Assembly: GCA_902767315.1 (NCBI GenBank)
Contig: CACXHB010000112.1
Span: forward strand, 1,496-25,495
Origin: an uncultured Eubacteriales bacterium
GTDB taxonomy: Bacteria; Bacillota; Clostridia; Christensenellales; Aristaeellaceae
DNA: 24,000 nt
Direction: 5' to 3'
The notes beneath the pieces are model-generated. The model saw nothing but the letters and a program-made list of their open reading frames with translations, was not told the origin of the DNA and searched no databases. How positions within the stretch are numbered: the stretch's first letter is position 1; each line of letters begins with the position of its first letter. The translations under genes were made by a program, and so were the position numbers. Below are positions 5,894-22,787 of the stretch, piece after piece.

Positions 5894-6367
5894 TTATTTT
5901 GCCGCCGCCCGGGCCTTTTTCCGGGCCAGATATCGCTGCTCCGCCGCCTCGTATTCCAACCGCTCCTCGTCGTTTTGCAAAACCAGCCGGGGCGGGCGGA
6001 TGGAACGCTCTTCCTCGTCCAGGGCCACCATCACCAGATACGCCCGGTTGATGCGCTCCCGTTCCCCGTTCTGCCGGTCCACATAGGTTTCCACCTTCAC
6101 CTCAAAGGAGGTGTTGCCCACATACGTCACCTTGCCGATGATCTCCAGAATGTCCCCCAGCTTGGCGGCGGTGAGAAAGTCCAGTTTGTCGATGGCGGCG
6201 GTGGTTACCTCCGTGCCGCAATAACGCCGGCCCGTAATGCCGGCCACCATGTCGATCCACTCCAGCAGCCTGCCGCCGTAGAGCTTGCCCCGGGTGTTGA
6301 GATCCTGATACATCAGCATCCGGGTCTGCCGGGTCAGGGAATCCTGCACCGTGCTGGTCTTTTCCAT
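5894..6367 (-). CDS. Acyl-CoA thioesterase (hotdog fold, YciA/BFIT-like)
   Basis: MLMYQDLNTRGKLYGGRLLEWIDMVAGITGRRYCG...VTTAAIDKLDFLTAAKLGDILEIIGKVTYVGNTSFEVKVE is the typical hotdog acyl-CoA thioester hydrolase pattern. GGAGG RBS; 6-nt gap to recQ. Confidence 0.75.
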   Translation of the reverse strand: MEKTSTVQDSLTRQTRMLMYQDLNTRGKLYGGRLLEWIDMVAGITGRRYCGTEVTTAAIDKLDFLTAAKLGDILEIIGKVTYVGNTSFEVKVETYVDRQNGERERINRAYLVMVALDEEERSIRPPRLVLQNDEERLEYEAAEQRYLARKKARAAAK

Positions 6368-8212: not shown

Positions 8213-10711
8213 TTATGCCGTTTCGATGCCCGCGGCCTTCTGCAGCTTCAGCCGCGCGATGGCCTCTTCCCGCATCCTGTATTTCAGTATCTTGCCCGCC
8301 GCGTTCATGGGGAACCCCGTCACAAAGTCGATGTACCGGGGCACCTTGTGCCGGGCCATGTGCTCCCGCACATATTGCTTCATTTCGTCCGCGGTCATGC
8401 TCTCCCCTTCCTTCAGCACCACGCAGGCCATGATCTCCTCGCCGTACTGCTCGTCCGGCACGCCGATCACCTGCACGTCGCTGACCTTGGGGTGGGTGTA
8501 AATGAATTCCTCAATCTCCTTGGGATAAATGTTCTCGCCGCCCCGGATAATCATGTCCTTCAGCCGGCCGGTAATGCGGAAATTGCCGTCCTCGGTCTTG
8601 CAGGCCAGATCGCCCGTGTGCAGCCAGCCGTCCTTGTCGATGGCCCGCACGGTTTCGTCGGGCATCTTGTAATATCCCTTCATCAGGTTGTATCCCCGGG
8701 CCACGAATTCGCCGATTTCCCCGGTGGGCAGCTCCCTGCCGGTGTCCGGGTCGATAATCCGGCATTCGATTTCCGGCATGGCCCGGCCCACGGTGCCCAC
8801 CCGCACCTCCAGCGGGTCGTCCGTGGAGGACATGGTGCATCCCGGGGAAGCCTCCGTCTGGCCGTATACAATCACGATTTCCGACATGTGCATCTTGTTC
8901 ACCACGTCCCGCATTTTGGAAATGGGGCAGGGAGAACCGGCCATGATGCCCGTGCGCATGCAGGAAAAATCCGTCTTTTCAAAGTCCGGATGCTCCAATA
9001 GCGCCACAAACATGGTGGGCACGCCGTGGAAGCAGGTGATGTGCTCCTGATGAATGCAGGCCAGGGCGGGCTTGGCGGAAAAATAGGGCAGGGGCAGTAT
9101 GGTAGCCCCGTGGGTCATGGCCGCGGTCATGGCCAGCACCATACCAAAGCAGTGGAACATGGGCACCTGAATCATCATCCGGTCCGCGGTGGAAAGATCC
9201 ATCCGGTCGCCGATGCATTTGCCGTTGTTGACCACGTTGTAATGGGTCAGCATCACGCCCTTGGGAAATCCCGTGGTGCCGGAAGTGTACTGCATGTTGC
9301 ATACGTCGTGGGGCGAAACCTGCGCCGCCATGCGCAATACTTCCTGATGGGGCACCGTCCTGCCCCGCTCCAGGGCCTCTTCCCAGGTCACGGCCCCCGC
9401 CTGGCGGAAGCCCACGGTGATGATGTTCCGCAAAAAGGGCAGCCGGTGGCTGTGCAGGAACTGCCCGGGTCGGGTCTCCGCCAATTCCGGACAAAGCTCG
9501 TTCATAATGGCCTGATAATCGCTGTCCTTGTTGGATTTCTCCATAATCAGCGTGTGGGTGTCCGATTGCTTCAGCAGATATTCCGCCTCGTGAATCTTGT
9601 AAGCGGTGTTCATGGTCACCAGCACCGCGCCGATTTTGGTGGTGGCCCAGAAGGCGATGAACCACTGGGGCAGGTTGGTGGCCCAGATGGTCACGTGGCT
9701 GCCCGCCTTCACCCCCAGGGCGATCAGCGCCCGGGCGAAGTCGTCCACGTCGTCCCGGAACTGGGCGTAGGTACGGGTGTAGTTGAGGGTGGTGTATTTA
9801 ATGGCCTGCTGGTCGGGGAATTCCTCCACCATCCGGTCCAGCACCTTGGAAAACGTGCAGTCGATCAGGGCGTCCTTGGTCCATACGTACCGGCCCGTGT
9901 GCCGCCGGTTGAAGTGCAGCGGCTTTTTCAGGGTGCGGGGGCTCTCGAACCGGTTCATGTAATTCACAAAATGGGGGAAGATGATCTCCCTGTCCTGCAA
10001 ATCCTCCATCCACTGGGGTTTCCACACCAGGGAAATGAACCCGTCGTAATTAATGGAAGCCAGCGCGTCCATCATGGCGGGAATGGGCAGCGTGCCCTCG
10101 CCGATAAGGTTGTATACTCCCTCGTCGTCGGAATCCCGCAATTGTACGTGGCGCACATACGCCCCCAGGTTTTTGATGGTCACCGCCGGGGTCTCCCCGT
10201 GGTCCCGCACCGTATGGTGCAAATCCCACGTGGCCGCCAGCTCGTCGCAGGCAAAGTAGTTCATCAGATCCCGCAGCCGCTCGGTGTCCGCGTAAATTCC
10301 CGCGGTTTTGATCAGCACCGTCACCCGGTTCTCCGCCGCCCGGGGCAGAATCCGCCGCAGGCTCTCCCGCACCGCGTCCTCGTTTTCCCCGGATGCGTAT
10401 ACCCCGATGTAGGGCACCCGCAAATCCGCCGCCAGCCGGGTCAATTGCTCCATGGCCCGCACCGCGTCCTCTACCTCGCCGGACAGGTCAATCGAACTGT
10501 CCAGACAGGGAATCTCCAGCTTTTTCTCCGCCAGCAGCCGCACGGTGGAGGAAATGCAATATTGATGAAAGGGCCCGCTTTTGTCGAAAAGGGCCTTCTG
10601 CATGTGGGCGTTGTAGATTTCCACGCCGGAAAAGCGCATTTCTCCGGCCATGCGAATCCATTCTTCCCAGGGCGCGCCCTCCCAGCCCCGGGTGGAAAAG
10701 GAGAGCTTCAT
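8213..10711 (-). CDS. Fusion protein: N-terminal xylose-isomerase-like TIM barrel (sugar phosphate isomerase/epimerase, AP-endonuclease-2 fold, ~270 aa) plus C-terminal AMP-dependent acyl-CoA synthetase (FadD/ACSF2-like, ~560 aa)
   Basis: The N-terminus MKLSFSTRGWEGAPWEEWIRMAGEMRFSGVEIYN...VTVLIKT...WDLHHT...HVQLRDSD...GEGTLPIPAMMDALASINYDGFISLVWKP fits the TIM-barrel family pattern. The C-terminus carries MQYTSGTTGFPKGVMLTHYNV, YGQTEASP, GWLHTGDLACKTEDGNFRITGRLKDMIIRGGENIYPKEIE and AGKILK (adenylate-forming A3/A5/A8/A10 motifs). There is one uninterrupted ORF. The start overlaps the upstream stop (ATGA). Confidence 0.85.
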   Translation of the reverse strand: MKLSFSTRGWEGAPWEEWIRMAGEMRFSGVEIYNAHMQKALFDKSGPFHQYCISSTVRLLAEKKLEIPCLDSSIDLSGEVEDAVRAMEQLTRLAADLRVPYIGVYASGENEDAVRESLRRILPRAAENRVTVLIKTAGIYADTERLRDLMNYFACDELAATWDLHHTVRDHGETPAVTIKNLGAYVRHVQLRDSDDEGVYNLIGEGTLPIPAMMDALASINYDGFISLVWKPQWMEDLQDREIIFPHFVNYMNRFESPRTLKKPLHFNRRHTGRYVWTKDALIDCTFSKVLDRMVEEFPDQQAIKYTTLNYTRTYAQFRDDVDDFARALIALGVKAGSHVTIWATNLPQWFIAFWATTKIGAVLVTMNTAYKIHEAEYLLKQSDTHTLIMEKSNKDSDYQAIMNELCPELAETRPGQFLHSHRLPFLRNIITVGFRQAGAVTWEEALERGRTVPHQEVLRMAAQVSPHDVCNMQYTSGTTGFPKGVMLTHYNVVNNGKCIGDRMDLSTADRMMIQVPMFHCFGMVLAMTAAMTHGATILPLPYFSAKPALACIHQEHITCFHGVPTMFVALLEHPDFEKTDFSCMRTGIMAGSPCPISKMRDVVNKMHMSEIVIVYGQTEASPGCTMSSTDDPLEVRVGTVGRAMPEIECRIIDPDTGRELPTGEIGEFVARGYNLMKGYYKMPDETVRAIDKDGWLHTGDLACKTEDGNFRITGRLKDMIIRGGENIYPKEIEEFIYTHPKVSDVQVIGVPDEQYGEEIMACVVLKEGESMTADEMKQYVREHMARHKVPRYIDFVTGFPMNAAGKILKYRMREEAIARLKLQKAAGIETA

Positions 10712-12132
10712 GCTTCGGCCTCCTCATATACGATTTTGTTCAGCGCGCTGACGTAGGCCCGGATGCTGGCCCCCACCACGTCCGTGGAAATGCCCCGCCC
10801 GGAATACAGCTTGCCCCCGGAGCGCAGCCGCACGATGGTTTCGCCCATGGCCTCCCGGCCCTGGGTCACGGCCTGAATCTGGAAATCGTCCAGTTCGTAG
10901 TGGTGCCCCACAATCTGCTCCACCGCCAGGAACGCCGCGTCGATGGGCCCGTCTCCCAGACACACTCCCTCCAGCTTCGTCTCGCCCTTGTAAAGCACCA
11001 GATGAGCGCTGGCGGAAACGGTGTTGCCGCAGGTCACCAGATACGTGTCCACCCGGTAAGTGGGGGGCACCTGCATGGCCGCGGAGGCCACGATGGTGTC
11101 CAACTCCTTGGCGCTGAGGCTCTCCTTCCGGGCGGCGATGCGCTGGAAGGCCTCGTATACCCGGGCCACGTCCTCTTCGGACAGGTCGTAGCCGATCTTC
11201 TTCACCGCGTCGGCCACGGCGGCGCGGTCGTCGTGGGCGGAAAGCACCACGTCCGCGTGGGCCGCGGCGGACTGCACCCCGCTGTCAAAGGGGGATTTCG
11301 CGTCCCGGCTGGTGCGGCACATCCATTCGATCTGGTCCGTCACCCGCTTCAGTTCCGTGTTGTAAAGGTCGCTGCCCACGCCCATGGCCACGCCCCGGCT
11401 CTGCATCACCGCGGAAAAGTGGTTGATGCTGGTCACGTTGCCTTTGCAGGAAATGACCTTGATCTCCCGGGCCCCGCAGCGCACCGCCGCCGTGGCGCAG
11501 GCCGTGGCCATGTTCATCTCGTCCGAACACATGACCCCCAGCCGCACGCTGTCCATTTCCGGCACCGCGGCCTTGATCTCTTCCAGAAATTGCGTAAATT
11601 CGTCCGGGAACATCAGTCCTGCAGTGTCGCACAGGGTAATCACCGTGGCGCCGGCGGAAATGGCCGTGCGGATGGCCCGGCAGAGGAACTCCCTTTCGCT
11701 GCGGCAGGCATCGTCCGCAATGAATTCCACCTCGCCGCATTTTTCCCGGCATTGGGCGATCAGCCCCGCGATGGTCTCCAGGGTCTTTTCCGGCTTCTTG
11801 TGCCAGAAATATTCCATCTGGGTGGGGCTCATGGGGGCCTCCACCTGCAGCCGGGGATTTACCGCGTTTTTCAGCGCTTCGTAAGTGTCCTCCACGCTGC
11901 CCTCCTCCAGGGTCACGGGCGCGGCGATGGTGGCGTGCTTCACCGCCATGGCGATGGATTTAATCAAAAGGCTGTCGATTTTCCGGCTGCGGATGGGGCT
12001 GACCTCGATGACGCTGACGTTCAGCCGGTCCAGCAGCTTCGCCAGCTCGATTTTCTCCTTAAAGCTCAGGGAAAGCTCCGGGGCCTGGTCGGCAACCTTC
12101 ATGGTAATATCGCTTACGCCAATGTTCTGCAT
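10708..12132 (-). CDS. 2-isopropylmalate/citramalate synthase homologue with a degenerate catalytic site and a conserved C-terminal LeuA allosteric/dimerisation domain (probable pseudoenzyme or sensor)
   Basis: The HMGL-like barrel is alignable to LeuA, but DTTLRDGEQ is replaced by DITMKVADQ, HxH(N/D)D by MCSDE, and GIGERAGN by CKGNVTSI. DTAGL (for DTVGY) is kept. The C-terminus GDGPIDAAFLAVEQIVG...FQIQAVTQGREAMGETIVRLRSGGKLYSGRGISTDVVGASIRAYVSALNKI is a well-conserved LeuA regulatory domain. AGGAGG RBS. Confidence 0.75.
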   Translation of the reverse strand: MQNIGVSDITMKVADQAPELSLSFKEKIELAKLLDRLNVSVIEVSPIRSRKIDSLLIKSIAMAVKHATIAAPVTLEEGSVEDTYEALKNAVNPRLQVEAPMSPTQMEYFWHKKPEKTLETIAGLIAQCREKCGEVEFIADDACRSEREFLCRAIRTAISAGATVITLCDTAGLMFPDEFTQFLEEIKAAVPEMDSVRLGVMCSDEMNMATACATAAVRCGAREIKVISCKGNVTSINHFSAVMQSRGVAMGVGSDLYNTELKRVTDQIEWMCRTSRDAKSPFDSGVQSAAAHADVVLSAHDDRAAVADAVKKIGYDLSEEDVARVYEAFQRIAARKESLSAKELDTIVASAAMQVPPTYRVDTYLVTCGNTVSASAHLVLYKGETKLEGVCLGDGPIDAAFLAVEQIVGHHYELDDFQIQAVTQGREAMGETIVRLRSGGKLYSGRGISTDVVGASIRAYVSALNKIVYEEAEA

Positions 12133-12175: not shown

Positions 12176-13243
12176 TCAAATGCGCAGGGTCCACCCGAAG
12201 GGATCCTCGATCTTGCCCCACTGAATGCCGGTAAGGGTGTCGTACAGCATGTGGGTCACTTCACCGATCTCGCCGCCGTTTACGATGTACGTCCTGTCTT
12301 TGTAAGCCAGCTTGCCGATGGGCGAAATCACCGCGGCGGTGCCGCAGCCCCAGGCCTCTTCCAGGGTGCCGTTTTCCATGGCGGCGGCCAGTTCGTCCAC
12401 GCTCAGCAGGCGCTCTACTACATTGTAGCCCTTGCCGCGCAAAACGTCAATGCAGCTTTTCCGGGTAACGCCGGGCAAAATGGAGCCCGTCAGCGCCGGG
12501 GTCACCACTTCGCCGGAAATTTTGAACATCACGTTCATGGCGCCCACTTCTTCAATGTACTTGCGCTCCACGCCGTCCAGCCACAAAACCTGGCTGTATC
12601 CCTGCCGTTCGGCCCGCTCGCCGGCCCGGTTGGAGGCCGCGTAATTGCCGCCGCACTTGGCGTATCCCGTGCCGCCCCGCACCGCACGCACGTCCTGATC
12701 CTCGATCATGATGCCCACGGGGTTGATGCCTTCCTTATAATAGCTGCCCACCGGGGAAAGAATCACGCAGAAGGCGGCGTGCTCCACCGCGTGCACCCCC
12801 AGCGTCTCGTCCGTTCCGAAGGTGAAGGGCCGAATGTACAGGCTGGTGCCTTCCAGATGGGGCACCCAGTCCTCCTCCATCTTCACCAGCGTGGTCACCA
12901 CCTGCAAAAAGTCCTCCTCCGGCAGCTGGGGCAGACACAGCCGCTCCGCGGAATTCATCATTCGCCGGGCGTTTTCCCAGGGGCGGAACAGCTGCACGCC
13001 GCCGTCCTTTCTGCGGTAAGCCTTCAGTCCTTCGAAAATCTCCGCGCCGTAGTGAAGACAGGTGGAGGCCGGATGCATGGAGAAGTTGCCGAAGGGGACG
13101 ATCCGGGCGTCGTGCCAGCCCTTTTCCCTGTCCCAGTCCACCATCGCCATGTAATCGGTAAAAATCTTTCCAAAGCCCAGCTTGGTCTCGTCGGCGGGCT
13201 TTTCCTTCAGCTGCGCGCATTTTTCCACACGGATGTCCAACAT
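12176..13243 (-). CDS. ilvE: Branched-chain amino acid aminotransferase (fold-type IV PLP enzyme, ~355-aa type)
   Basis: KLGFGKIFTDYM, HYGAEIFEGLKAYR, GTGYAKCGGNYAAS, LTGSILPGVTR and GCGTAAVISPI motifs. I chose the start at 13243 (MLDIRVEK) because GGGAGGAG lies 7 nt upstream. The track ORF begins 24 nt earlier, at 13267. Confidence 0.9.
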   Translation of the reverse strand: MLDIRVEKCAQLKEKPADETKLGFGKIFTDYMAMVDWDREKGWHDARIVPFGNFSMHPASTCLHYGAEIFEGLKAYRRKDGGVQLFRPWENARRMMNSAERLCLPQLPEEDFLQVVTTLVKMEEDWVPHLEGTSLYIRPFTFGTDETLGVHAVEHAAFCVILSPVGSYYKEGINPVGIMIEDQDVRAVRGGTGYAKCGGNYAASNRAGERAERQGYSQVLWLDGVERKYIEEVGAMNVMFKISGEVVTPALTGSILPGVTRKSCIDVLRGKGYNVVERLLSVDELAAAMENGTLEEAWGCGTAAVISPIGKLAYKDRTYIVNGGEIGEVTHMLYDTLTGIQWGKIEDPFGWTLRI

Positions 13244-13280
13244 TTCTTTTCTCCTCCCTGCGTTCAAATCCCTGGGTTCT

Positions 13281-13814
13281 TTATTCGAAGTTCCGGCCCA
13301 TTTCCAGGGCCTTCCGGTTGAAATCGTACATCTCCGGGTGCTTCACGGAAACCACCTTTTTCAGCGCCGCCTCCACGTTTTCCGGCTCGTACTGCCCCAG
13401 TCGGGCCAGCATCGCCCCGGAAAGAATCATGTTGGCCAGGGTGGTCACCCCGTTTTCCCCGGCCATGCGGGTGGCGGGCACATATACCGCGTGCACGTCC
13501 TGCCGGCGCACCTTCCGCTCAATCAGCGTGGAATCCACAAAAATCCATCCGCCGGGGTTCACCGCGTCCTCGTATTTGTCCAGCGACGGCAGATTCATCA
13601 CCATCAAAACGTCCGGATGATCCACAATGGGGGAAGAAACCGGCTCGTCCCCGATGACCACCGAACAGTTGGCGGTGCCGCCCCGCATTTCCGGGCCGTA
13701 GGAGGGCAGCCAGGTCACCTGCTTTCCCTCCATCATGCCCTTGTTCACCAGAAACTTGCCCGCGAAGAGGATGCCCTGTCCGCCGAATCCGGCGATGAGA
13801 AAACGAGTGGTCAT
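13281..13814 (-). CDS. 2-oxoacid:ferredoxin oxidoreductase, gamma subunit
   Basis: [22 protein letters not shown]...[20 protein letters not shown] is the typical gamma-subunit signature. The start ATG at 13812-13814 overlaps the beta stop (ATGA). The longer track ORF start at 13889 lies inside the beta gene. Confidence 0.85.
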
Positions 13815-14566
13815 TTTGCCTCCTCCTTTGCGCTTCTGTCCTTGTAAACTCCCAGGGGATAATAGGGAATCATCTTGTCCTGCACCCATTCCAGCGCCTT
13901 TTCCGGCGTCATGCCCCAGTTGGTGGGACAGGCGGACAACACCTCCACCAGAGAAAATCCCTTCCCCGCCAGCTGGTTTTCAAATGCCTTTTTGATGGCC
14001 TTTTTCGCGGCCTTCACGTTTTTGACGTTGTTCACCGCCACCCGTTCCAGATATTCCGGCCCGTCCAGGGTGGAAAGCATTTCGCAGATCTTCACCGGAT
14101 ACCCGCAGGCCTTCACGTCCCTTCCGTAGGGCGAGGTCTGGGTCACCTGCCCGGGCAGGGAGGTGGGGGCCATCTGCCCGCCGGTCATGCCGTAAATGGC
14201 GTTGTTGATGAAAATAATGGTGATGTTCTCGTTCCGGGCCGCGGCGTGCACCGTCTCCGCCGTGCCGATGGAGGCCAGGTCTCCGTCTCCCTGATAGGTA
14301 AACACCACGTTGTGCTCCGGGTCGGCCCGCTTCAGTCCCGTGGCCACCGCGGGGGCCCGTCCGTGGGCCGCCTCCACCATGTCGCAGGCGAAATAATCAT
14401 ACGCCATCACCGCGCAGCCCACCGGCGCCACGCCGATGGTGCGTCCCTCGATGCCCAGTTCGTCGATCACTTCCGCCACCAGCCGGTGCACAATGCCGTG
14501 GGTGCACCCGGGGCAGTAATGCAGCGGTACGTCCAAAAGAGCGTGGGGTCGTTCAAATACCATCAT
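13811..14566 (-). CDS. 2-oxoacid:ferredoxin oxidoreductase, beta (TPP-binding) subunit
   Basis: [19 protein letters not shown], and the TPP motif [14 protein letters not shown]...[14 protein letters not shown]. The start overlaps the alpha stop. Confidence 0.9.
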
Positions 14567-15627
14567 TTTTCGGCGCCTCCCTCCATGTTTTCGATTCCTC
14601 TGAGCACCTCTTCCGGGGAAGGAATGATGCCGCCCGCCCGATGAATCAGCTTCACCGGCCGTTTGCAGGAAATGGCCAGCCGCACGTCGTCAATCATCTG
14701 GCCCATGTTCAGTTCCACCGTGGCAAAGGATACGCACTTCTCCGCTGCGGCCGCCAGGGCCTTTTCCGGGAAGGGCCACAGGGTAATGGGCCGAATCATG
14801 CCCGCCCGAATGCCCTTTTTCCGGGCCTCGTCAATGGCCGCCTTGGTCACCCGCGCCGCAATGCCGAAGGCCACCAGGCAGTATTCCGCGTCCTCCATGC
14901 GGTATTCCTCCCACATGGCCTCCTTTTCCTGAATCCGCCCGTACCGCTGGAACCGCTCAAAGTTCTGCCGCTCCAGCTCCGCCGGGGCCAGGGAAAGGGA
15001 ATTGACGATGTTGTGCTTGCGGCCCATGCCCGTGCCGGTAACGGCCCAGGACTTGTCGAATTCCTTTTTCTCGATTTTCGGAATTTCCACCGGCTCCATC
15101 ATCTGGCCCATGGTGCCGTCCGCCAGTATCATGGCCGTCATCCGGTATTCGTCCGCCAGGTCAAAGCCCTTCACCGTCAAATCGGCCATTTCCTGCACGC
15201 TGGCCGGGGCCAGCACGATCATCCGGAAATCCCCGTGTCCGCCGCCCTTGGTGGCCTGGAAGTAGTCCGATTGAGAGGGCTGAATGCCCCCCAGCCCCGG
15301 GCCGCCCCGCTGCACGTTCACCACCAGCGCCGGCAGATCCGCCCCCGCCAGATAGGAAAGCCCCTCGCTCTTCAGGGAAATTCCCGGGCTGGAGGAAGAG
15401 GTCATCACCCGATGCCCGGTGGAAGAGACGCCGTAAACCATGTTGATGGCGGCGATTTCACTTTCCGCCTGCAGAAACACGCCGCCGATTTTGGGCATGC
15501 GTTTGGCCATGTAGGCCGCCACTTCCGTCTGCGGCGTAATGGGATATCCGAAATAATGCCGGCATCCGGCCATGATGGCCGCCTCGGCAATGGCTTCGTT
15601 GCCCTTCATCAGTACCTTGTCCGCCAT
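14563..15627 (-). CDS. vorB: 2-oxoacid:ferredoxin oxidoreductase, alpha subunit (VorB-like; substrate not assignable from sequence alone)
   Basis: [36 protein letters not shown]...[15 protein letters not shown]... is the typical four-subunit OFOR alpha N-terminus. The vorB label rests on resemblance to proteins I recall being annotated that way, plus the BCAT context. Confidence 0.8.
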
Positions 15628-15645: not shown

Positions 15646-15852
15646 TTATCGCTCCACCGTAATCACGCAATCGGGGCACATGGTGGCGCAGAAGGCGCAG
15701 CCCACGCAGGCCTCGGGGTTCGTGATCTCGGCGGGATGGTGTCCTTTTTGATTGATGCGGTCCCGTGCGATGCGAATGAGCTTTTTGGGGCACGCGCCTA
15801 CGCACAGTCCGCAGCCCTTACAGCGGTCCACCTGAAACGTGATCTTTGCCAT
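15646..15852 (-). CDS. 2x[4Fe-4S] ferredoxin (OFOR delta subunit), 68 aa
   Basis: Two CxxCxxCxxxCP motifs: CKGCGLCVGACP and CVGCAFCATMCP. It lies immediately upstream of the alpha subunit. Confidence 0.85.
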   Translation of the reverse strand: MAKITFQVDRCKGCGLCVGACPKKLIRIARDRINQKGHHPAEITNPEACVGCAFCATMCPDCVITVER

Positions 15853-15903: not shown

Positions 15904-16566
15904 TTATCGTATCTTGTCCTGCAGCCGCAGGGGGAAAAGGTTTTCGATCTTCCCTTCCAGATAGGGAATCAGTTCCGCCTTTGCGGTGGTCATCTTCAGC
16001 GGCAGCCCCGCCCTGCGGCAGATTTCCCGGGCGTATCCGTCGGAAGAAAGCACGTCCCGGGGGGCGGTGTCGTCTCCAATGTTGGAATTGTTCACCACGC
16101 CGGTAAAGGGCATCCCCGCCGCCGCCTGAATTTCCGCCATCACCTCCAGGGCGCTGTCCGCGTCCCGGGTCAGGGGGCGAAAGCAGTTCACCACCATCAG
16201 CATCTCCCAGTCTCCTTCCGCCATCAGCCCTTCCCGCCATCGGCCCAGGGCCAGGGCCCCCCGGTCGTCGCCGCCCACGTCCACCACGGCGGAAAGGCCG
16301 ATATCGTCGGTAATGGCGTATACCTCGTCGGGCAGGGCGGGCAAATCCACGTTGGAACCCGCAAAGGGCGAGGCGATCAGCCGAATGCCGTCCCGCTCCA
16401 GCTCCTCCCGGGAATCCTCCGTGCGGAAATAGGGGTTCACAATGTCAATGTCCGCAATGGCCACCCGGGGCCGGGTCTTTTTTAAATGATGGGCCACGTT
16501 CACGGCGATGTTGGTTTTGCCGCTGCCGTAATGGCCGCTGAAAATCACAATGCGCTTGAAATCCAT
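15904..16566 (-). CDS. P-loop NTPase of the MinD/ParA/CooC (SIMIBI) type, 220 aa; first gene of the T-box operon
   Basis: MDFKRIVIFSGHYGSGKTNIAVN carries Walker A GxxGSGKT right at the N-terminus, followed by VAIADIDIVNPYF and a Walker-B-like AVVDVGGDD. The start at 16566 is preceded by GAAGGAGG. The track ORF start at 16707 would run through the T-box terminator hairpin. Confidence 0.7.
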   Translation of the reverse strand: MDFKRIVIFSGHYGSGKTNIAVNVAHHLKKTRPRVAIADIDIVNPYFRTEDSREELERDGIRLIASPFAGSNVDLPALPDEVYAITDDIGLSAVVDVGGDDRGALALGRWREGLMAEGDWEMLMVVNCFRPLTRDADSALEVMAEIQAAAGMPFTGVVNNSNIGDDTAPRDVLSSDGYAREICRRAGLPLKMTTAKAELIPYLEGKIENLFPLRLQDKIR

Positions 16567-16587: not shown

Positions 16588-16885
16588 ATGAAAAAACACA
16601 CTCGTCTCAAAGAAATGAGATTCTTTGAGACGAGTGTGATCAAAACACCCGCGGTACCACTCAAATTGCGGTCTGTGAAAAAACCGCCCCTCGTCGGGCT
16701 CTGACAAGCCCTATGCCTTGACGCAGCAGTCACGGGAAGGTTCTACTGGCCCCCTCGGGCGTTCTTCCTTCCGGCTCGGGAAATTCAGATGTCCGCCCTG
16801 CGCCGCGTTTCGTGGCTCGCACCCACCGCCACTTCTCTGAAAACGGGCCTTCGCCGGGGACATTTTCCCTCATTGCCTTTGTTGT
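16588..16885 (-). promoter_or_regulatory. T-box riboswitch leader 1 (tRNA-sensing transcription attenuator)
   Basis: Read on the minus strand: K-turn AAUGA...GAG; AG bulge CAGAGAA; distal loop GGUGGGUGCGA; AGUAG; T-box AAUUUGAGUGGUACCGCGGG (plus coordinates 16648-16662). UUUGAG can pair with CUCAAA of the terminator 5' arm, forming the antiterminator. The terminator is CACACUCGUCUCAAAGA-loop-UCUUUGAGACGAGUGUG followed by UUUUUU (16591-16638). Confidence 0.9.
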
Positions 16886-16890
16886 GGCCT

Positions 16891-16919
16891 ATTCTATCTC
16901 ATTTCCTTTGCGCTGTCAA
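16891..16919 (-). promoter_or_regulatory. Sigma-70 promoter of T-box leader 1 (-35 TTGACA, 17 nt, -10 TAGAAT)
   Basis: The minus strand reads TTGACAgcgcaaaggaaatgagaTAGAAT. The -35 is a perfect consensus match, the spacer is 17 nt, and the -10 matches TATAAT at 5 of 6 positions. Confidence 0.8.
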
Positions 16920-16992: not shown

Positions 16993-19254
16993 TTACAGCT
17001 TGTTGCGCTGAATCTTGCCGCTGACGGTCTTGGGCAATTCGTCCTTGAACACCACGATGCGGGGATATTTGTAAGGCGCGGTGTGCTCCTTGACGTAGGT
17101 CTGAATCTCCTTTTTCAATTCCTCCGTGCCCTGGGTGCCCTTTGTCAGCACGATGCTGGCCTTCACCACCTGGCCGCGCACCTCGTCCGGCGCGGCGGAT
17201 ACGCCGCATTCCAGCACGTAGGGCAGTTCCATAATGACGCTCTCGATTTCGAAGGGCCCAATCCGGTATCCGGAGGATTTGATCACGTCGTCCACCCGGC
17301 CCACGTACCAGTAGAAGCCGTCCTCGTCCATCCAGGCCACGTCGCCGGTGTGATACCATCCGTCGTGCCATACCTCCCGGGTCTTCTCCTCGTCCCGGTA
17401 ATATCCCTTAAACAGCCCGCAGGGTACCTTTTCGTCCGTGCGGATGCAGATTTCGCCGGAAACGCCCGCGCCCACGATTTCTCCGTCGGGCCCCAGCAGA
17501 TGAATATCGTACAGGGGCACCGGCTTGCCCATGGCCCCCACCTTGTGGGAATCTCCCATGAGGTTGGCGATGGAAAGGGTGGTCTCCGTCTGGCCGAAGC
17601 CCTCCATGATCCGCAGCCCCGTCAGCTTCTCGAATTGCCGGAATACCTCCGGGTTCATGGCCTCGCCGGCGGTGGTGGCCCGCTGGACGGAGGAGAAGTC
17701 GTACTGGCTCAGGTCCTGCTTGATCATCATCCGATACATGGTCGGCGGCGCGCAGAAGGTGGTGATGTGATACTTGGCGAACAGGGGCAGAATGTCCGCC
17801 GCGTCGAACCGGTCGAAGTCGTAGGTGAATACTCCGCCCTCGCACAGCCATTGCCCGTACAGCTTGCCCCACAGGGCCTTGCCCCATCCGGTGTCGGAAA
17901 TGGTGAAGTGCAGCCCGTCCCGGTCCACCCCGTGCCACCAGCGGGCGGTGATGTAATGCCCCAGGGGATATTTGTACGAATGGGCCGCGATCTTGGGATA
18001 CCCGGTGGTGCCGCTGGTGAAGAACATCAGCATTGTGTCGTCGCCGCAGGGGGCGTCCTCCGGCCGGTCGTATTTCCGGGTGAACAGTACGCTCTCCCCG
18101 TCGTAATCGTGCCAGCCCTCCCTGCTGCCGCCCACGGCGATTTTCACCTTCAGTTCGGGACAGCTCGCCGCCGCCAGATCCACCTGATGGGCGGTGTCCC
18201 CGTCGCAGGTGCACAATATGGCGCTGACCCCCGCGGACTGGAACCGGTATTCGAAGTCGTGGGCCTGCAGCTGATTGGTGGCGGGAATGGCGATGGCCCC
18301 CAGCTTGTGCAGCCCCAGAATCGCCGGCCAGAATTCCCAGTGCCGCTTCAGCACCAGCATCACCCGGTCGCCCTTTTTCACGCCCAGGGATTTAAAGTAA
18401 TTGGCCGCCTGGGCGGAAAGCCGCTTCATGTCCTTGAAGGTGAATTTCCGCTCCTGCTTGTGCTTGTCCAGATGCAGCATGGCCAGCTTGTCCGGGTATT
18501 TGTCCGCCAGCGCGTCCACCACGTCGAAGGCGAAGTTGAACTGATCTTCCCCGGTAAACTCGATGCGCTTCAGGGTTCCGTCCTCGCCTACCCCCGCGTG
18601 CACAAACTTTTCGCACACCAGATCCTCGGCCTTGCTGGCCATCACCAGGCTGTCCCGAATCTCCGCCTCGGCCACTTCCTCCCCCGGCAGCACCACCGCC
18701 AGGAACACGCAGTCCTGCCCGTCCACGGCGATCATCCCGTGGGGCGTGGAGGAATCATAGAAAATGCTGTCTCCTTCGTTCAGCAGCTCCACATGGTCGC
18801 CCACCTGCACCTTCAGCGTGCCGGAGAAAATCAGGTCGAATTCCTGGCCGGAATGGGTGGTCATGTGAATAGGCCGGTGCTGCAATTCCGGCAGATAGTC
18901 GTATTTTACCCAATAGGGCTCGGCCATCTTCCCCCGGAACATGGGGGCCAGGTGCTGAATCTGAATGCCCCGCTCCCGGGCGGTGGTCACGCCCCGGCCC
19001 TTGCGGGTCACGGTGTAACTGGAAAGGTGCGCGCTGTATCCCTCCAACAGGTCGGTAATCTCAATGCCGAAGGCCAGGGCGCATTTGTGAATGAACGTAA
19101 AGGGCAGATCCACCGCGCCGGTTTCATATGCCGCGTACGTCTCCGGGCTCACCTGGGTCTTTTCCGCCATCTCGGCCTCGGTCAGCCCCATAATTTCGCG
19201 CATCTCCCGAATGCGCAGCGCGATTTCCATCAGCGGATTTTGAGAAGTTTGCAT
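16993..19254 (-). CDS. Fusion protein: XRE-family HTH + cupin domain (~190 aa) plus medium-chain-type AMP-dependent acyl-CoA synthetase (ACSM/MacS-like)
   Basis: N-terminus: MEIALRIREMREIMGLTEAEMAEKTQVSPETYAAYETG (HTH_3-like), then HSGQEFDLIFSGTLKVQVGDHVELLNEGDSIFYDSSTPHGM (cupin). C-terminus: FNFAFDVVDALADKYPDKLAMLH, MLMFFTSGTTGYPK, GFGQTET, GWYHTGDVAWMDEDGFYWYVGRVDDVIKSSGYRIGPFEIES and SGKIQR. The start at 19254 (MQTSQNPL) follows GGGAGGG. The track start at 19362 lies inside the T-box. Confidence 0.85.
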   Translation of the reverse strand: MQTSQNPLMEIALRIREMREIMGLTEAEMAEKTQVSPETYAAYETGAVDLPFTFIHKCALAFGIEITDLLEGYSAHLSSYTVTRKGRGVTTARERGIQIQHLAPMFRGKMAEPYWVKYDYLPELQHRPIHMTTHSGQEFDLIFSGTLKVQVGDHVELLNEGDSIFYDSSTPHGMIAVDGQDCVFLAVVLPGEEVAEAEIRDSLVMASKAEDLVCEKFVHAGVGEDGTLKRIEFTGEDQFNFAFDVVDALADKYPDKLAMLHLDKHKQERKFTFKDMKRLSAQAANYFKSLGVKKGDRVMLVLKRHWEFWPAILGLHKLGAIAIPATNQLQAHDFEYRFQSAGVSAILCTCDGDTAHQVDLAAASCPELKVKIAVGGSREGWHDYDGESVLFTRKYDRPEDAPCGDDTMLMFFTSGTTGYPKIAAHSYKYPLGHYITARWWHGVDRDGLHFTISDTGWGKALWGKLYGQWLCEGGVFTYDFDRFDAADILPLFAKYHITTFCAPPTMYRMMIKQDLSQYDFSSVQRATTAGEAMNPEVFRQFEKLTGLRIMEGFGQTETTLSIANLMGDSHKVGAMGKPVPLYDIHLLGPDGEIVGAGVSGEICIRTDEKVPCGLFKGYYRDEEKTREVWHDGWYHTGDVAWMDEDGFYWYVGRVDDVIKSSGYRIGPFEIESVIMELPYVLECGVSAAPDEVRGQVVKASIVLTKGTQGTEELKKEIQTYVKEHTAPYKYPRIVVFKDELPKTVSGKIQRNKL

Positions 19255-19297: not shown

Positions 19298-19586
19298 TGA
19301 AAAAAACCCGTCCCAAAGCGTTTTGCTTTGAGACGGGTGAAAACATTCTCCCGCGGTACCACTCAAATTGCGGTCTATAAAAAACCGCCCCTCGTCGGGC
19401 TCCAACAAGCCCTATGCCTTGACGCAGCAATCACGTAAGTCCCTACTCGGTTCCCCTTTGAGGCCTTCAACTCGGAAGTGATGGGTCTGATGGATTTCGA
19501 TCCGCCGGTTCACACCAACCACCGGCTCTCTGCAGCACGATCTCCGACCGCCTTCGTCATCGTCTTTGATGTCGTATTCGGTTGTA
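19298..19586 (-). promoter_or_regulatory. T-box riboswitch leader 2
   Basis: Read on the minus strand: K-turn GAUGAC-GAAG...CUUC-CGAG; AG bulge CAGAGAG; distal loop GGUUGGUGUGAA; AGUAGGG; T-box AAUUUGAGUGGUACCGCGGG (plus 19350-19364). The terminator is ACCCGUCUCAAAGC-aaaac-GCUUUGGGACGGGU followed by UUUUUUU (19300-19338). The best specifier guess is AUC followed by A, just 5' of the CUUC lower-stem strand. Confidence 0.9.
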
Positions 19587-19765: not shown

Positions 19766-21682
19766 TTACTGCGCGTCCGCGTCGAACCAGTATCCGTCGC
19801 CGCGGCTGGAGCCGTTGGCGCCAAAGTCCCAACCGGCGCCGAAGGTGTCCGCGTTGTGCACGTAGTTTTTAATCACCACAATGCCGGGCAGCCGGCGGCC
19901 GATGCCGATGGCGTACAGGCCGTCTTTCCAGATCTGGATGACTTCCTTGATCTCCGCGTCGCGGGCCGCGTCGTCGGTTTCCACCACGATCTGCGCGCCC
20001 AGTTCCTTCAGGCGGGCCATTTCGGGGGTGGGCTCGAAGGCGTGGTCGCCGGACTTGATGAAGATGCCGGGCATGCAGCGGTTGCCCCAGTTGTAGGAAG
20101 CGTAGCCGGTCCAGGTGTCCACGGAACCGGTGGTCACCGCCAGGAAGCCGTTGTCGCCGCTGCCGGTAAGGGCGGTGATGTCAAATTCGTTGCCCTCGGT
20201 GCGCTCGCCCCACAGGGAAGGCTCCACGATGGAGGCGTTGATGTTCAATTTCAGGTTCTCGCGCCATTCGGAGGCCACCATTTCGGCCACCTCGCCCCAC
20301 TGCACGTCGTAATTGGGCACCAGAATCACCAGGTCGAATTCCTGGCCGTCGGCGGTCATGCGCCAGCCGTTGTCGTCGTACTGGGTCATGCCCATCTCGT
20401 CCAGCATCTTGTTGGCGGTTTCCGGGTCAAACTGGGTGTACTGCTTGGTCCACTCCTCGTCGTAATAGGGAGAATTCTCCAGGAAGGAGGACTGGGCGAT
20501 TTCGGAAACGAAGGGCCCAATGGCGTAGAAGGTGGAAATGATAGTGGGCCGGTCCATGCCCAGCGACAGGGCGCGGCGGAATTCCACGTTGCCCAGATAG
20601 GGGGCCTTCACCGGATCCACGGAGGTGATGTTGAAGTGGAAGTTCAGCGCGCCGGGCTCGTTGTGCTCCACGGTGGTCAGCCGGTAGTTCATCTCGTCCG
20701 CGTACTGAGCAAACAGCGGATAGTTGGAGAAGGATTCGGACAGACCCGCGGCCTGCACGTCCACTTCGCCGGCGATGATCTTCATGTTCATCAGGTCGGT
20801 GGATTCCACAATGGTAATCACCGCGTTGTCGATGTAGGGCAGCTGGTTGCCTTCCTGGTCGACGCAGCAGTAATAGGGATTGCGCTCGTAGAGATAGGTG
20901 TTGGTGGTGGCGGGGTCGGTGGTCATGACCCAGGGGCCCAGCACGGGCAGATCCTTATTGGTCTGCACGTTGGTCTTGTCCTGCATCAGGTTCTTCCAGT
21001 CGTCGAAGCTTTCCTCGGCCAGCTTCGCGGTCATTTCCTCTTCGGTGAGGTAGGAAGGATGGAACTGCTTCAGGTAATGGGCGGGATATACAAACCGGGA
21101 ATTGCCGTCCTTGGCCCAGAAGGTCAGATACAGGGGCTTGGGGGTCTCGAAGGTGAAGGTGAAGGTCCAGTCGTCCACCTTGTCCAGGGTGCAGTCCGCG
21201 TAATAGGTGTCGGAAGGGGTGTATTCCGTGTTCTTCAGAATGTCGTTCCACCAGAACTCCACGTCTTCCATGGTCACCGGCTCGCCGTCGGACCACTTCA
21301 GCCCTTCGCGCAGTTTGAAGGTAAACACGGTGTATTCGTCGTTGTGCTCGTAGCTTTCCAGCCACGTGGGGATGATGGTCTGGTTGTCCCGGTCGTAAAT
21401 CAGGCCGTTGTGATCCAGATAACCGGTCATGTGAGAACGGGCGTGGTTGTAGGTGCCCTGGGGCGTAGCCTGACGCCAGGTGCCGCCGTAAATACCCACC
21501 TCGGGGTTCACCAGTACCTGGGGATTTTTCGGCAGCCTCTCCTCCACCGGAGGCAGCTCGCCCGCATTGACCTTTTCCGTCAGCACGGGAGATTCGGCGT
21601 AGGTTCCTTCGGCGGAAACCAGTACCGGGCAAAGAGCCAGTACCATCGCCAGCGCCAAAAGGGTCGAAAGCAGCTTCTTCAT
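19766..21682 (-). CDS. Extracellular solute-binding protein, ABC transporter family 5 (peptide/oligosaccharide type), 638 aa
   Basis: Signal peptide MKKLLSTLLALAMVLALCPVLVSAEG. The body (LPKNPQVLVNPEVGIYGGTW..., KLREGLKWSDGEPVT, ERNPYYCCVD..., FRRALSLGMDRPTII) fits SBP_bac_5 architecture. The start at 21682 follows GAAGGAGAGG; the track start at 21763 is upstream of that RBS. Confidence 0.8.
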   Translation of the reverse strand: MKKLLSTLLALAMVLALCPVLVSAEGTYAESPVLTEKVNAGELPPVEERLPKNPQVLVNPEVGIYGGTWRQATPQGTYNHARSHMTGYLDHNGLIYDRDNQTIIPTWLESYEHNDEYTVFTFKLREGLKWSDGEPVTMEDVEFWWNDILKNTEYTPSDTYYADCTLDKVDDWTFTFTFETPKPLYLTFWAKDGNSRFVYPAHYLKQFHPSYLTEEEMTAKLAEESFDDWKNLMQDKTNVQTNKDLPVLGPWVMTTDPATTNTYLYERNPYYCCVDQEGNQLPYIDNAVITIVESTDLMNMKIIAGEVDVQAAGLSESFSNYPLFAQYADEMNYRLTTVEHNEPGALNFHFNITSVDPVKAPYLGNVEFRRALSLGMDRPTIISTFYAIGPFVSEIAQSSFLENSPYYDEEWTKQYTQFDPETANKMLDEMGMTQYDDNGWRMTADGQEFDLVILVPNYDVQWGEVAEMVASEWRENLKLNINASIVEPSLWGERTEGNEFDITALTGSGDNGFLAVTTGSVDTWTGYASYNWGNRCMPGIFIKSGDHAFEPTPEMARLKELGAQIVVETDDAARDAEIKEVIQIWKDGLYAIGIGRRLPGIVVIKNYVHNADTFGAGWDFGANGSSRGDGYWFDADAQ

Positions 21683-21798
21683 GGATTGCACCTCTCCTTC
21701 GATTCGTCCGGGGAACGTCCCGGCGTATGCCAATCGCGTTTTACCGCGTCGGACAATCATCACACTTTCGGCGCAGCGCTAAAAATTCCAAACCCGTC

Positions 21799-21827
21799 TT
21801 GCCCCGCGCCTCACAATATACTATAAT
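21799..21827 (+). promoter_or_regulatory. Sigma-70 promoter for the AraC-family gene (-35 TTGCCC, 17 nt, -10 TATAAT)
   Basis: TTGCCCcgcgcctcacaatatacTATAAT lies about 40 nt upstream of the ATG at 21870, in the divergent intergenic region. Confidence 0.55.
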
Positions 21828-21869
21828 AGATTTAACAAAAAAATGTAAGAACGAAACAGGTAAAAAACT

Positions 21870-22787
21870 ATGCGAAATTGGTCACCCGAAGAACTCCCCA
21901 TCCTGGAAGATGCGCAGATTTCTCTCCATCTCCTGCCCGACGTCTCGGATTGGATCGCGCCCCGTCCCCTGGAAATGTGGGATATCCCCTATCTCCATTA
22001 TCATACGCTCTTTGAATTCGGTTATTGCGTCCGGGGCAGCGGCGTGTGCAAGGTGGGCCGGGAAGAAGTCCCCTTCCAGCCCGGCGACGTGGAAATTGTC
22101 TATCCTTATCAGCTGCACCTGTCCCGGGCCCATCGGGGGGCTCCCTGCCTGTGGCATTGGGTGTTTCTGGATCTGCCCGCCCTGATGATGGACGCGGGCT
22201 ACCCGCCCCTGCCTCCCTTTGCCGACGACCGAAATTCCGGCGTGGCCCGCAGCGGCCTTTTCCCCGCCGCCGAATATCCCCGCCTGGCGGAAACCGTGCG
22301 CCGCCTGGTGGACGAGGTCATCCTCCGTCCCCCGGACTGGCTGCCCATGACCGCCTCCCTGGCCAATATGCTGGCCGTGGAAACTCGCCGAATCGCCCCC
22401 GCCGGAAATCGCCCGCCGGATCGCCGGGACGAGGATATGCAGTGCATCGCCCCCGCCCTGCGCATTCTGCTTCAGGACGCCCGCCTGGGCCGCCGCACGG
22501 GATTGAACGCCCTGGCGGAGCAGTGCGGCATGAGCCTCTCCAGCTTTCAGCGGGCCTTCCGCCGGGTGCTGGACGCCAGTCCTCACGATTACGCCGTGGG
22601 CTGCGCCCTGCACCAGGCCCGGCTGCTGCTTTTGCAAACCCAGCGCAGCATCGCCCAGATCAGCCAGGATACCGGCTTTGAAAGCGTCTCCGGCTTCAAC
22701 CGCAGCTTCCTGAAGCATTGCGGCCAGACCCCTTCCCAATATCGGCGCAGTAACCGCATGTCGTCCGTCCTCCCCTCGGAAGAATGA
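21870..22787 (+). CDS. AraC-family transcriptional regulator (N-terminal cupin-like sensor, C-terminal dual HTH)
   Basis: The C-terminus LNALAEQCGMSLSSFQRAFRRVLDASPHDYAVGCALHQARLLLLQTQRSIAQISQDTGFESVSGFNRSFLKHCGQTPSQYRR is a typical AraC/XylS HTH_18 domain. The N-terminus YHTLFEFGYCVRGSG...FQPGDVEIVYPYQLH is AraC-ligand-binding/cupin-like. Confidence 0.85.
   Translation: MRNWSPEELPILEDAQISLHLLPDVSDWIAPRPLEMWDIPYLHYHTLFEFGYCVRGSGVCKVGREEVPFQPGDVEIVYPYQLHLSRAHRGAPCLWHWVFLDLPALMMDAGYPPLPPFADDRNSGVARSGLFPAAEYPRLAETVRRLVDEVILRPPDWLPMTASLANMLAVETRRIAPAGNRPPDRRDEDMQCIAPALRILLQDARLGRRTGLNALAEQCGMSLSSFQRAFRRVLDASPHDYAVGCALHQARLLLLQTQRSIAQISQDTGFESVSGFNRSFLKHCGQTPSQYRRSNRMSSVLPSEE

Follow-up and report, generated by a model that had tools for sequence, protein, structure and literature searches.

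A TIM barrel-acyl-CoA synthetase fusion and its LeuA-like partner, a candidate leucine-branch module in an uncultured Eubacteriales bacterium

A barrel and a ligase in one reading frame

The DNA studied here (hereafter the window) is a stretch of 24,000 nucleotides from contig CACXHB010000112.1 of an uncultured Eubacteriales bacterium, and our subject is a gene on its minus strand (8213..10711) in which a triose-phosphate isomerase (TIM) barrel, a linker and an acyl-coenzyme A (acyl-CoA) synthetase are encoded as a single protein of 832 amino acids. The open reading frame (ORF) is unbroken from the ATG at 10711 to the stop codon at 8213-8215, and three Pfam domains match the protein over their gathering scores: PF01261 at residues 24-231 (66.7 bits, cut-off 31.1), PF00501 at residues 292-681 (309.8 bits, cut-off 29.9) and PF13193 at residues 732-807 (73.8 bits, cut-off 24.5). 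An earlier note on this DNA had described the uninterrupted joining of a barrel to an adenylate-forming enzyme, and had seen no frame break or internal ribosome-binding site at the junction. Both descriptions hold, as a reading of the junction DNA found no stop, no in-frame ATG and no Shine-Dalgarno-like sequence. The linker itself (residues 256-278; 9878..9946, minus strand) is in frame and conserved, with a mean top-residue frequency of 0.74 over 65 species and a predicted local distance difference test (pLDDT) score of 71-79 in the AlphaFold2 model of the full-length protein.

The fusion is found well beyond this contig. The best 120 homologous clusters (defined at 90% identity) in a full-length search were 67-100% identical to the protein and contained the three domains in every case; nearly all have lengths of 823-846 amino acids, the three shorter ones being partial entries, and one homologue among them is encoded on a contig of 3.58 Mb. 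The protein's own cluster counts 91 members, among them 13 full-length ones from independent assemblies that are all 832 amino acids long and 96.8-100% identical. By scanning one genome per species, we found relatives in at least 523 species genomes, with carriers that include Oscillospiraceae, Faecousia, Acutalibacteraceae, Dysosmobacter, Roseburia and other Lachnospiraceae, Tissierellia and rumen Bacteroidales. For locus comparisons we fetched 80 loci from species-representative genomes, and 65 of the 66 complete ORFs in them are fused at 824-840 amino acids. Taken together, the full-length clusters (at least 120), these complete ORFs and the 13 independent assemblies of the same species rule out a fusion created by assembly. 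Public databases name the homologues only as "AMP-binding protein" or "fatty-acyl-CoA synthase". Two irregular cases should be recorded. The sole complete ORF that is not full length (L077, 8906-10438; 510 amino acids) has its ligase part resuming in another frame from about 10345 and is probably the product of a frameshift or an assembly error. A protein of 577 amino acids (P0352) starts with about 115 residues resembling the partner protein described in the next section before running into the latter half of the barrel and the ligase, and reflects either a mis-assembly or a deletion that fused the two genes.

The acyl-CoA synthetase domain (8213..9877, minus strand) belongs to the ANL superfamily. 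All of the core motifs reported earlier were located, in the expected order and spacing (TSGTTGFPKG near residue 482, YGQTE near 616, TGD near 699, GRLKD near 715 and GK near 806), and these motifs, including the C-terminal catalytic Lys of GK, are invariant in 55 homologues. The Gly of YGQTE occupies the position of the Trp that gates for acetate in Acs. The closest NCBIfam subfamily is NF009233 (PRK12583, "fatty acid CoA ligase family protein"), to which residues 279-824 align end to end (model positions 12-557 of 558); the two differ in that the score of 708.1 bits stays under the cut-off of 832 and in that the N-terminal 278 residues of the fusion protein lie outside the model. Judged by its motifs this is an ordinary ANL enzyme, yet it stands outside every curated subfamily.

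The N-terminal part (residues 1-255; 9947..10711, minus strand) is a xylose-isomerase-like TIM barrel with a non-canonical metal site. Its assignment to a TIM-barrel family, already proposed, agrees with the PF01261 score and with an AlphaFold2 model of residues 1-273, a (beta/alpha)8 barrel with a pLDDT of 91.8 and a predicted TM-score (pTM) of 0.89. When this model was submitted to Foldseek, the matches were xylose-isomerase-like structures (SCO6571, AsbF, UlaE, ketose 3-epimerases of the D-psicose 3-epimerase type, Art22 and IolI) at a probability of 1.0 and TM-scores of 0.65-0.77. No NCBIfam family claims the barrel; the best match, with 25 bits where the cut-off is 353, is hydroxypyruvate isomerase. 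The barrel is therefore like the PF01261 barrels (ketose 3-epimerases, UlaE, IolI, AsbF, hydroxypyruvate isomerase) in its fold, with a TM-score of about 0.75, and in the D-x-H and H-x-H-x-x-D landmarks that it shares with them; it is unlike them in its identity of at most 18%, in its fusion to a ligase, in falling within no curated subfamily and in its metal site.

In enzymes of PF01261 the C-terminal ends of the strands carry a tetrad of metal-binding and catalytic residues, which we take, from the ketose 3-epimerases, to be Glu-Asp-His-Glu. We mapped its positions by HMMER alignment to 3wqo, 3lmz and 4kw2, by the family alignment and by the strand ends of the AlphaFold2 model. In the fusion protein they are occupied by K135, D163, Q190 and V229, meaning that three of the four are lost and only D163 is left; the other residues of the site are H165, H166, H188 and D193. 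Sequencing error can be discarded as the source of K135, Q190 and V229, because all three are fixed in 13 of 13 members of the species cluster. A decaying pseudodomain is ruled out as well, given that the barrel varies within the species at 4 of 255 positions (32 of 547 in the ligase part) and contains no frameshifts. The barrel thus belongs to PF01261 by profile and fold but fails its defining metal tetrad and, because three of the four positions are replaced, it cannot, on the residues it carries, use the canonical metal mechanism. The earlier proposal of a metal-dependent isomerase or epimerase that adds a chemical step is not supported for this protein.

The wider family was surveyed at the same positions. 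Of 122 other full-length homologues, 56 have E and 63 have K at position 135, 116 have H at position 190 and 99 have E at position 229. The barrel also diverges between species faster than the ligase, with about 66% identity to the nearest clade as against 87%. In the wider clade that carries K135, the invariant residues gather at the C-terminal end of each of the eight strands. This is the signature of a real ligand pocket, and the family is thus likely to bind something. As most members keep H190, E229 and a strongly conserved pocket, the barrel may be catalytic in the wider family.

A LeuA-like partner without metal ligands

The gene immediately 5' of the fusion gene (10708..12132, minus strand), whose stop codon overlaps the fusion's ATG (ATGA), encodes a protein of 474 amino acids that we call pseudo-LeuA. 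It has the two-domain layout of LeuA and CimA, an HMGL-like barrel (116 bits) followed by a LeuA_dimer domain (99 bits), both over the Pfam gathering score. Nevertheless, it scores under every cut-off of the NCBIfam isopropylmalate, citramalate and homocitrate synthases, the best being 307.7 bits versus 532. In an alignment to a true isopropylmalate synthase, 3ewb (144 bits), DTTLRDGEQ is replaced by DITMKVADQ and HCHDD by MCSDE, which places V, M and S at the metal-ligand positions (the Asp of RDGxQ and the two His of HxH). The NGIGERAGN motif has disappeared as well.

These losses are a property of the family. None of the 76 partner proteins examined from other species retains any of the three metal ligands: Q, L, T or V stands in place of the Asp, and S or A in most cases replaces the two His. 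The GERAGN motif is likewise absent from all 76. The best conserved part of the partners is the LeuA_dimer domain, with a mean top-residue frequency of 0.81 versus 0.65 in the barrel. A sequence search of the Protein Data Bank (PDB) with the regulatory domain alone found no structure of a LeuA or CimA regulatory domain. The NCBI names of the partners are "hypothetical" or "alpha-isopropylmalate synthase regulatory domain-containing".

The pairing of the two genes is equally constant. In every locus with upstream sequence the pseudo-LeuA gene lies immediately 5' of the fusion gene, and the two overlap in 74 of 81 loci, with a shared stretch of 4 bp at 65 of them and of 1 bp at the other 9. Pseudo-LeuA therefore differs from LeuA and CimA in the absence of the Asp/His/His ligands and of GERAGN, in its scores and in being always coupled to the gene of a barrel-ligase fusion; it resembles them, in addition to its layout, in its predicted control by a leucine T-box leader (next section), which is seen for LeuA and CimA in other bacteria. 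More distant fused relatives (barrel identity 30-35%) combine canonical barrel sites with the absence of a pseudo-LeuA gene directly upstream, their genes beginning near contig ends; the fusion therefore appears to be older than the pairing. A barrel homologue that stands alone (P0336) lies on a contig of just 2 kb. Next to the fusion gene of one such relative (P0309; L085, 2690-3700, after the fusion gene) lies a 2-oxoacid dehydrogenase acyltransferase catalytic domain (PF00198), which suggests that the barrel-ligase module serves other acyl-CoA contexts too.

T-box leaders and the surrounding genes

T-box leaders turn genes on in response to uncharged cognate tRNA, a sign that the amino acid is in short supply. 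The window holds two of them on the minus strand. The first (16597..16882, from Stem I to the terminator hairpin) precedes the operon that ends in the fusion gene and the second (19306..19569) precedes a further ligase gene. In the E-value mode of Rfam they match model positions 1-219 of RF00230, at 16882-16623 with 63.7 bits (E = 8.3e-13) and at 19569-19326 with 90.7 bits (E = 9.5e-20). A search at the gathering threshold returned no match in the window, both scores being below the threshold of 93. Homologous leaders of the same genes at four other loci (L038, L063, L065 and L056) score 93.7-118.7 bits and pass it. A full-length T-box leader has the AGAGA and distal-loop motifs of Stem I, the T-box sequence UGGUACCGCG and a terminator hairpin, and both leaders in the window have them all. 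A consensus scan found two very strong terminator hairpins, with stems of 18 bp (operon leader) and 14 bp (ligase leader), each followed by a TTTTTTCATA U-tract, and a near-consensus promoter upstream of each leader. The promoter-like site of the operon leader (TTGACA-17-TAGAAT; 16891..16919, minus strand) matches the consensus at 11 of 12 positions and is known as a consensus match only.

The specifier of the operon leader is CUG (Leu). It is invariant among the homologous operon leaders of the window's clade, and the Stem I fold leaves CUGAA as a 3' bulge. Two other readings were tried and rejected. An isoleucine specifier (AUC) is unconserved in six homologous leaders in which CUG is conserved. 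A cysteine specifier (UGU or UGC), read in the canonical register, turns into a UGA stop both in the window and in L006, and an A73 discriminator is implied by the UGGU bulge. The second leader carries AUC (Ile), as do 30 homologous leaders.

This division extends to the related loci, where we counted 118 T-box motifs. Of these, 51 lie just 5' of the pseudo-LeuA/fusion pair, and 45 of the 51 have leucine specifiers (28 CUG, 16 CUC and 1 CUA), with four more assigned by eye. Another 58 lie 5' of ligases related to the one behind the second leader, with AUC (Ile) in 30 and GUC or GUA (Val) in 19, and 7, in the window's clade, lie 5' of the operon as it is found here. Covariance-model alignments place the Leu, Ile and Val triplets in the specifier columns. 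Based on the specifier codon (CUN) and the UGGU bulge, we infer that the fusion gene family is under leucine control. Two further riboswitches were seen at related loci: a tetrahydrofolate (THF) riboswitch about 2 kb upstream of the pair (L065, 6166-6266, plus strand; 74.6 bits, over the gathering score) and an extra T-box whose specifier columns read UGG (L038, 13939-14182, minus strand; 83.5 bits).

The operon behind the first leader runs in a single direction through genes for a ParA-like protein, VorD, VorB, the Vor beta and gamma subunits, IlvE, pseudo-LeuA and the fusion protein, all on the minus strand. Its first gene (15904..16566, start codon read) encodes a P-loop protein with Pfam matches to CbiA/ParA. 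It is kept directly 5' of vorD in about 30 related loci; the protein weakly resembles the iron-sulfur carrier MrpORP and may be a maturation factor for the oxidoreductase. The VorD-like ferredoxin subunit (15646..15852; 68 amino acids, 2x[4Fe-4S]) has two CxxCxxCxxxCP motifs, and the identical gene in L002 has Fer4 matches in Pfam. The alpha subunit VorB (14563..15627) was identified by NF005507 (540.7 bits, cut-off 399), the VorA-like beta subunit, which binds thiamine pyrophosphate (13811..14566), by PF02775, and the VorC-like gamma subunit of this 2-oxoacid:ferredoxin oxidoreductase (13281..13889) by PF01558, the called gene probably being 13281-13814 to judge from the gene call in L002. 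The branched-chain amino-acid aminotransferase IlvE (12176..13267) matches NF009897 with 479.8 bits against a cut-off of 307.

Upstream of the operon, behind the second T-box leader, lies the second ligase gene (16993..19254, minus strand). Its product, 753 amino acids from the ATG at 19254 (a start that agrees with the gene call in L002), has HTH_3 (helix-turn-helix, HTH), Cupin_2 and AMP-binding domains. Its best NCBIfam match is NF047394 (MbcS), with 416.7 bits, below the cut-off of 850, and we call it MbcS-like. For an acyl-CoA ligase, fusion to a DNA-binding and cupin module is an unusual architecture too. Related genomes have one or two copies of this HTH-cupin ligase, each with a T-box of its own. 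The earlier note had placed the fusion in a branched-chain amino acid (BCAA) module, and this part of it stands, with IlvE and VorB above their cut-offs and a second, MbcS-like ligase in addition; what it had overlooked are the obligate pseudo-LeuA partner and the T-box leaders.

In other species the pseudo-LeuA/fusion pair lies apart from the Vor genes, usually nearby, and Vor or a pyruvate:ferredoxin oxidoreductase (PFOR) adjoins the pair in 28 of the 33 loci with long flanks. The gene directly after the fusion encodes a PFOR-type enzyme at 14 loci (Roseburia, Lachnospiraceae, Bacteroidales, Tissierellia), with 1650-1690 bits for TIGR02176 (cut-off 911). In L001, which comes from a complete genome, a gene of the CN_hydrolase (nitrilase/amidase) superfamily (21286-22080) lies between vorC and ilvE. 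Elsewhere in the window, a 4HBT-family thioesterase gene is found downstream of RecQ on the strand of the cluster (5894-6367, minus strand), and an ORF of 421 amino acids on the plus strand (463-1728) has a C-terminal aminoacyl-tRNA editing domain (PF04073); on the corresponding strand of L002 the called gene spans just 163 amino acids, and the ORF may be over-extended.

A predicted route from branched short-chain fatty acids to amino acids

Since the 1960s it has been known that gut and rumen anaerobes use isovalerate, 2-methylbutyrate and isobutyrate to remake leucine, isoleucine and valine. The genes described above could encode such a route. As T-boxes act when the cognate tRNA is uncharged, the direction would be biosynthetic, and the leucine codons assign the fusion to leucine. 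Uncharged tRNA-Leu would let transcription through the leucine-specific leader into the operon; the C-terminal ANL domain would form the CoA thioester of a branched C5 acid, most likely isovalerate; VorDABC (the PFOR-type enzyme in other lineages) would reductively carboxylate isovaleryl-CoA to 2-oxoisocaproate; and IlvE would transaminate this to leucine. Two HTH-cupin, MbcS-like ligases would play the same role for 2-methylbutyrate (under an Ile T-box) and isobutyrate (under a Val T-box). The barrel and the translationally coupled pseudo-LeuA, a dead barrel with a LeuA_dimer effector domain, would most likely form an accessory or regulatory module on the ligase, and could plausibly exert leucine feedback on the first committed step. 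We put the probability of this reading as a whole, a leucine-branch acyl-CoA ligase that salvages branched short-chain fatty acids into BCAAs with the barrel and pseudo-LeuA in an accessory or regulatory role, at about 55%.

The preference of the ligase for isovalerate is suggested by the leucine T-box, by the linkage to Vor and IlvE and by the complementary specificity of MbcS. In Staphylococcus aureus, MbcS is an ANL ligase that makes CoA esters of exogenous branched short-chain acids (PMC10026030, PMC11167679), and a ligase like it is found in the fusion's own cluster. MbcS activates 2-methylbutyrate and isobutyrate, and isovalerate poorly (PMC10026030), which would leave isovalerate for the ligase of the fusion. 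The differences are also clear: the ligase domain of the fusion is only about 26% identical to its MbcS-like neighbour and closest to PRK12583, the fusion has its N-terminal barrel, its pseudo-LeuA partner and a leucine T-box, and MbcS supplies fatty-acid synthesis. The neighbour in turn differs from MbcS in its extra N-terminal HTH and cupin module. As for the pathway, rumen physiology is known to include the carboxylation of isovalerate to leucine (PMC7356843), and the reductive carboxylation cited there shares its predicted logic with the present cluster, from acid to acyl-CoA, by a ferredoxin-dependent step to the 2-oxoacid, and on to the amino acid. It differs in being physiologically defined, its activating enzymes and their control not being assigned in the literature that we searched. 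A gene-level reverse route from branched fatty acids has been called not yet proven (PMC7709123). Our literature search on the architecture, the gene pair, the regulon and the gene assignments of the pathway found no earlier description. What appears to be new is the unusual accessory module, together with the riboswitch logic, of a probable branched-chain acyl-CoA ligase.

That the barrel and pseudo-LeuA probably have an accessory, leucine-sensing role is suggested by three observations: the other two ligases carry a sensor-like HTH-cupin module at their N-termini, the pair is translationally coupled, and the divergence of the barrel follows that of pseudo-LeuA in a mirror-tree comparison of 62 species (r 0.79; partial r 0.63 given the ligase). 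The ligase follows pseudo-LeuA less well (partial r 0.31 and -0.07 given the barrel). One specific form of this idea is that a dead LeuA with a leucine-binding domain has been recycled as an allosteric subunit docked on the remodelled barrel, such that leucine would inhibit the isovalerate-CoA ligase, the first committed step. We regard this as a tentative mechanism and would not ourselves bet on it.

Several of our observations weigh against the salvage reading. The mirror-tree correlation is no more than suggestive, as it comes without a significance estimate and could be inflated by rate differences. The operon leader falls well short of the Rfam gathering score, its CUG is one base farther than usual from the lower helix, and neither the Bacteroidales loci nor L001 have a T-box before the pair. 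The ligase is below every subfamily and equivalog cut-off of NCBIfam, and its role as an isovalerate enzyme is a prediction. The 14 loci with a PFOR-type enzyme match the pyruvate:ferredoxin oxidoreductase equivalog, so that the chemistry could be that of acetate or pyruvate instead. The AlphaFold2 model of the full-length protein (pTM 0.59) does not resolve the packing of the domains. Finally, our fusion protein is the outlier of its family in the pocket residues of the barrel, and the pocket that the family conserves, H190 and E229 included, looks like a working ligand-binding or catalytic site; a purely regulatory role may thus be wrong for the family at large.

This last point leads to the explanation that survives best among the alternatives, namely that the barrel is a working enzyme which isomerises, epimerises, tautomerises or dehydrates a keto or hydroxy acid (the substrate of the ligase or the 2-oxoacid), with channelling provided by the fusion. 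The family-wide conserved pocket (R8, W10, E31, D71, D75, D163, H165, H166, H188, D193, E205, W230 and K231) speaks for it, as do the complete E-D-H-E tetrad kept in about half of the full-length homologues, the canonical sites of the distant fused relatives that have no pseudo-LeuA and the weak similarity, the best in NCBIfam, to hydroxypyruvate and 2-oxo-tetronate isomerases, whose substrates are small oxo-acids. Yet K, Q and V occupy three of the four ligand and catalytic-base positions and are fixed in the species, the whole K135 clade is without one of the two catalytic glutamates, and a route from isovalerate through isovaleryl-CoA and 2-oxoisocaproate to leucine requires no isomerase. 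The variant put forward in the earlier note, epimerisation at the stereocentre of 2-methylbutyrate, fits poorly, since the signal of the fusion family is leucine (CUN) and the isoleucine signal (AUC) sits on the other ligase. Overall, we consider a working barrel unlikely.

Also improbable, in our view, is that the cluster supplies leucine by way of another substrate, for example acetate or a different acid destined for a LeuA-related condensation, or a hydroxy or oxo acid derived from leucine, with pseudo-LeuA serving as a substrate-binding or carrier subunit and not as a sensor. The barrel of pseudo-LeuA does keep invariant residues (D8, T10, E136, R144, D169 and G172) and may bind a 2-oxoacid or a CoA ester, and the pyruvate-type PFOR enzymes behind the pair would suit this idea. 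However, the ligands missing from every partner are essential to the mechanism of the DRE-TIM metallolyases, a Gly stands at the acetate-gating position of the ligase, and the symmetric set of three ligases for Ile, Val and Leu around one Vor best suits three branched fatty acids. A catabolic cluster, in which leucine would be transaminated and oxidatively decarboxylated by Vor and the ligase, forming adenosine monophosphate (AMP) in its normal direction, would run in reverse to yield isovalerate and conserve energy, is very hard to credit: every reaction is reversible in principle and the branched-chain aminotransferase, Vor and PFOR-type enzymes do run oxidatively to branched-chain fatty acids in many gut anaerobes (general knowledge, with background in PMC7709123), but induction by a T-box under leucine scarcity would make leucine breakdown senseless, each of three separate ligases has its cognate Leu, Ile or Val specifier, and AMP-forming ligases normally proceed to the thioester.

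In practical terms, the salvage reading offers three ligases, each with T-box codons that name its amino acid, as testable candidates in hundreds of species of Oscillospiraceae, Lachnospiraceae and Bacteroidales. In metabolic reconstructions, the LeuA-like partner should not be scored as an isopropylmalate synthase, and supposed BCAA auxotrophs may instead rely on branched fatty acids that are cross-fed to them. The module of pseudo-LeuA and barrel is a candidate case of dead enzymes being reused for regulation. If the tentative mechanism of a dead LeuA docked on the ligase is true, it would, together with the codon-specific T-boxes of the three ligases, give a gene-level answer to how branched fatty acids become amino acids in the classical rumen pathway, and would provide a clear case of a pseudoenzyme that moved the feedback sensor of a pathway to its bypass.

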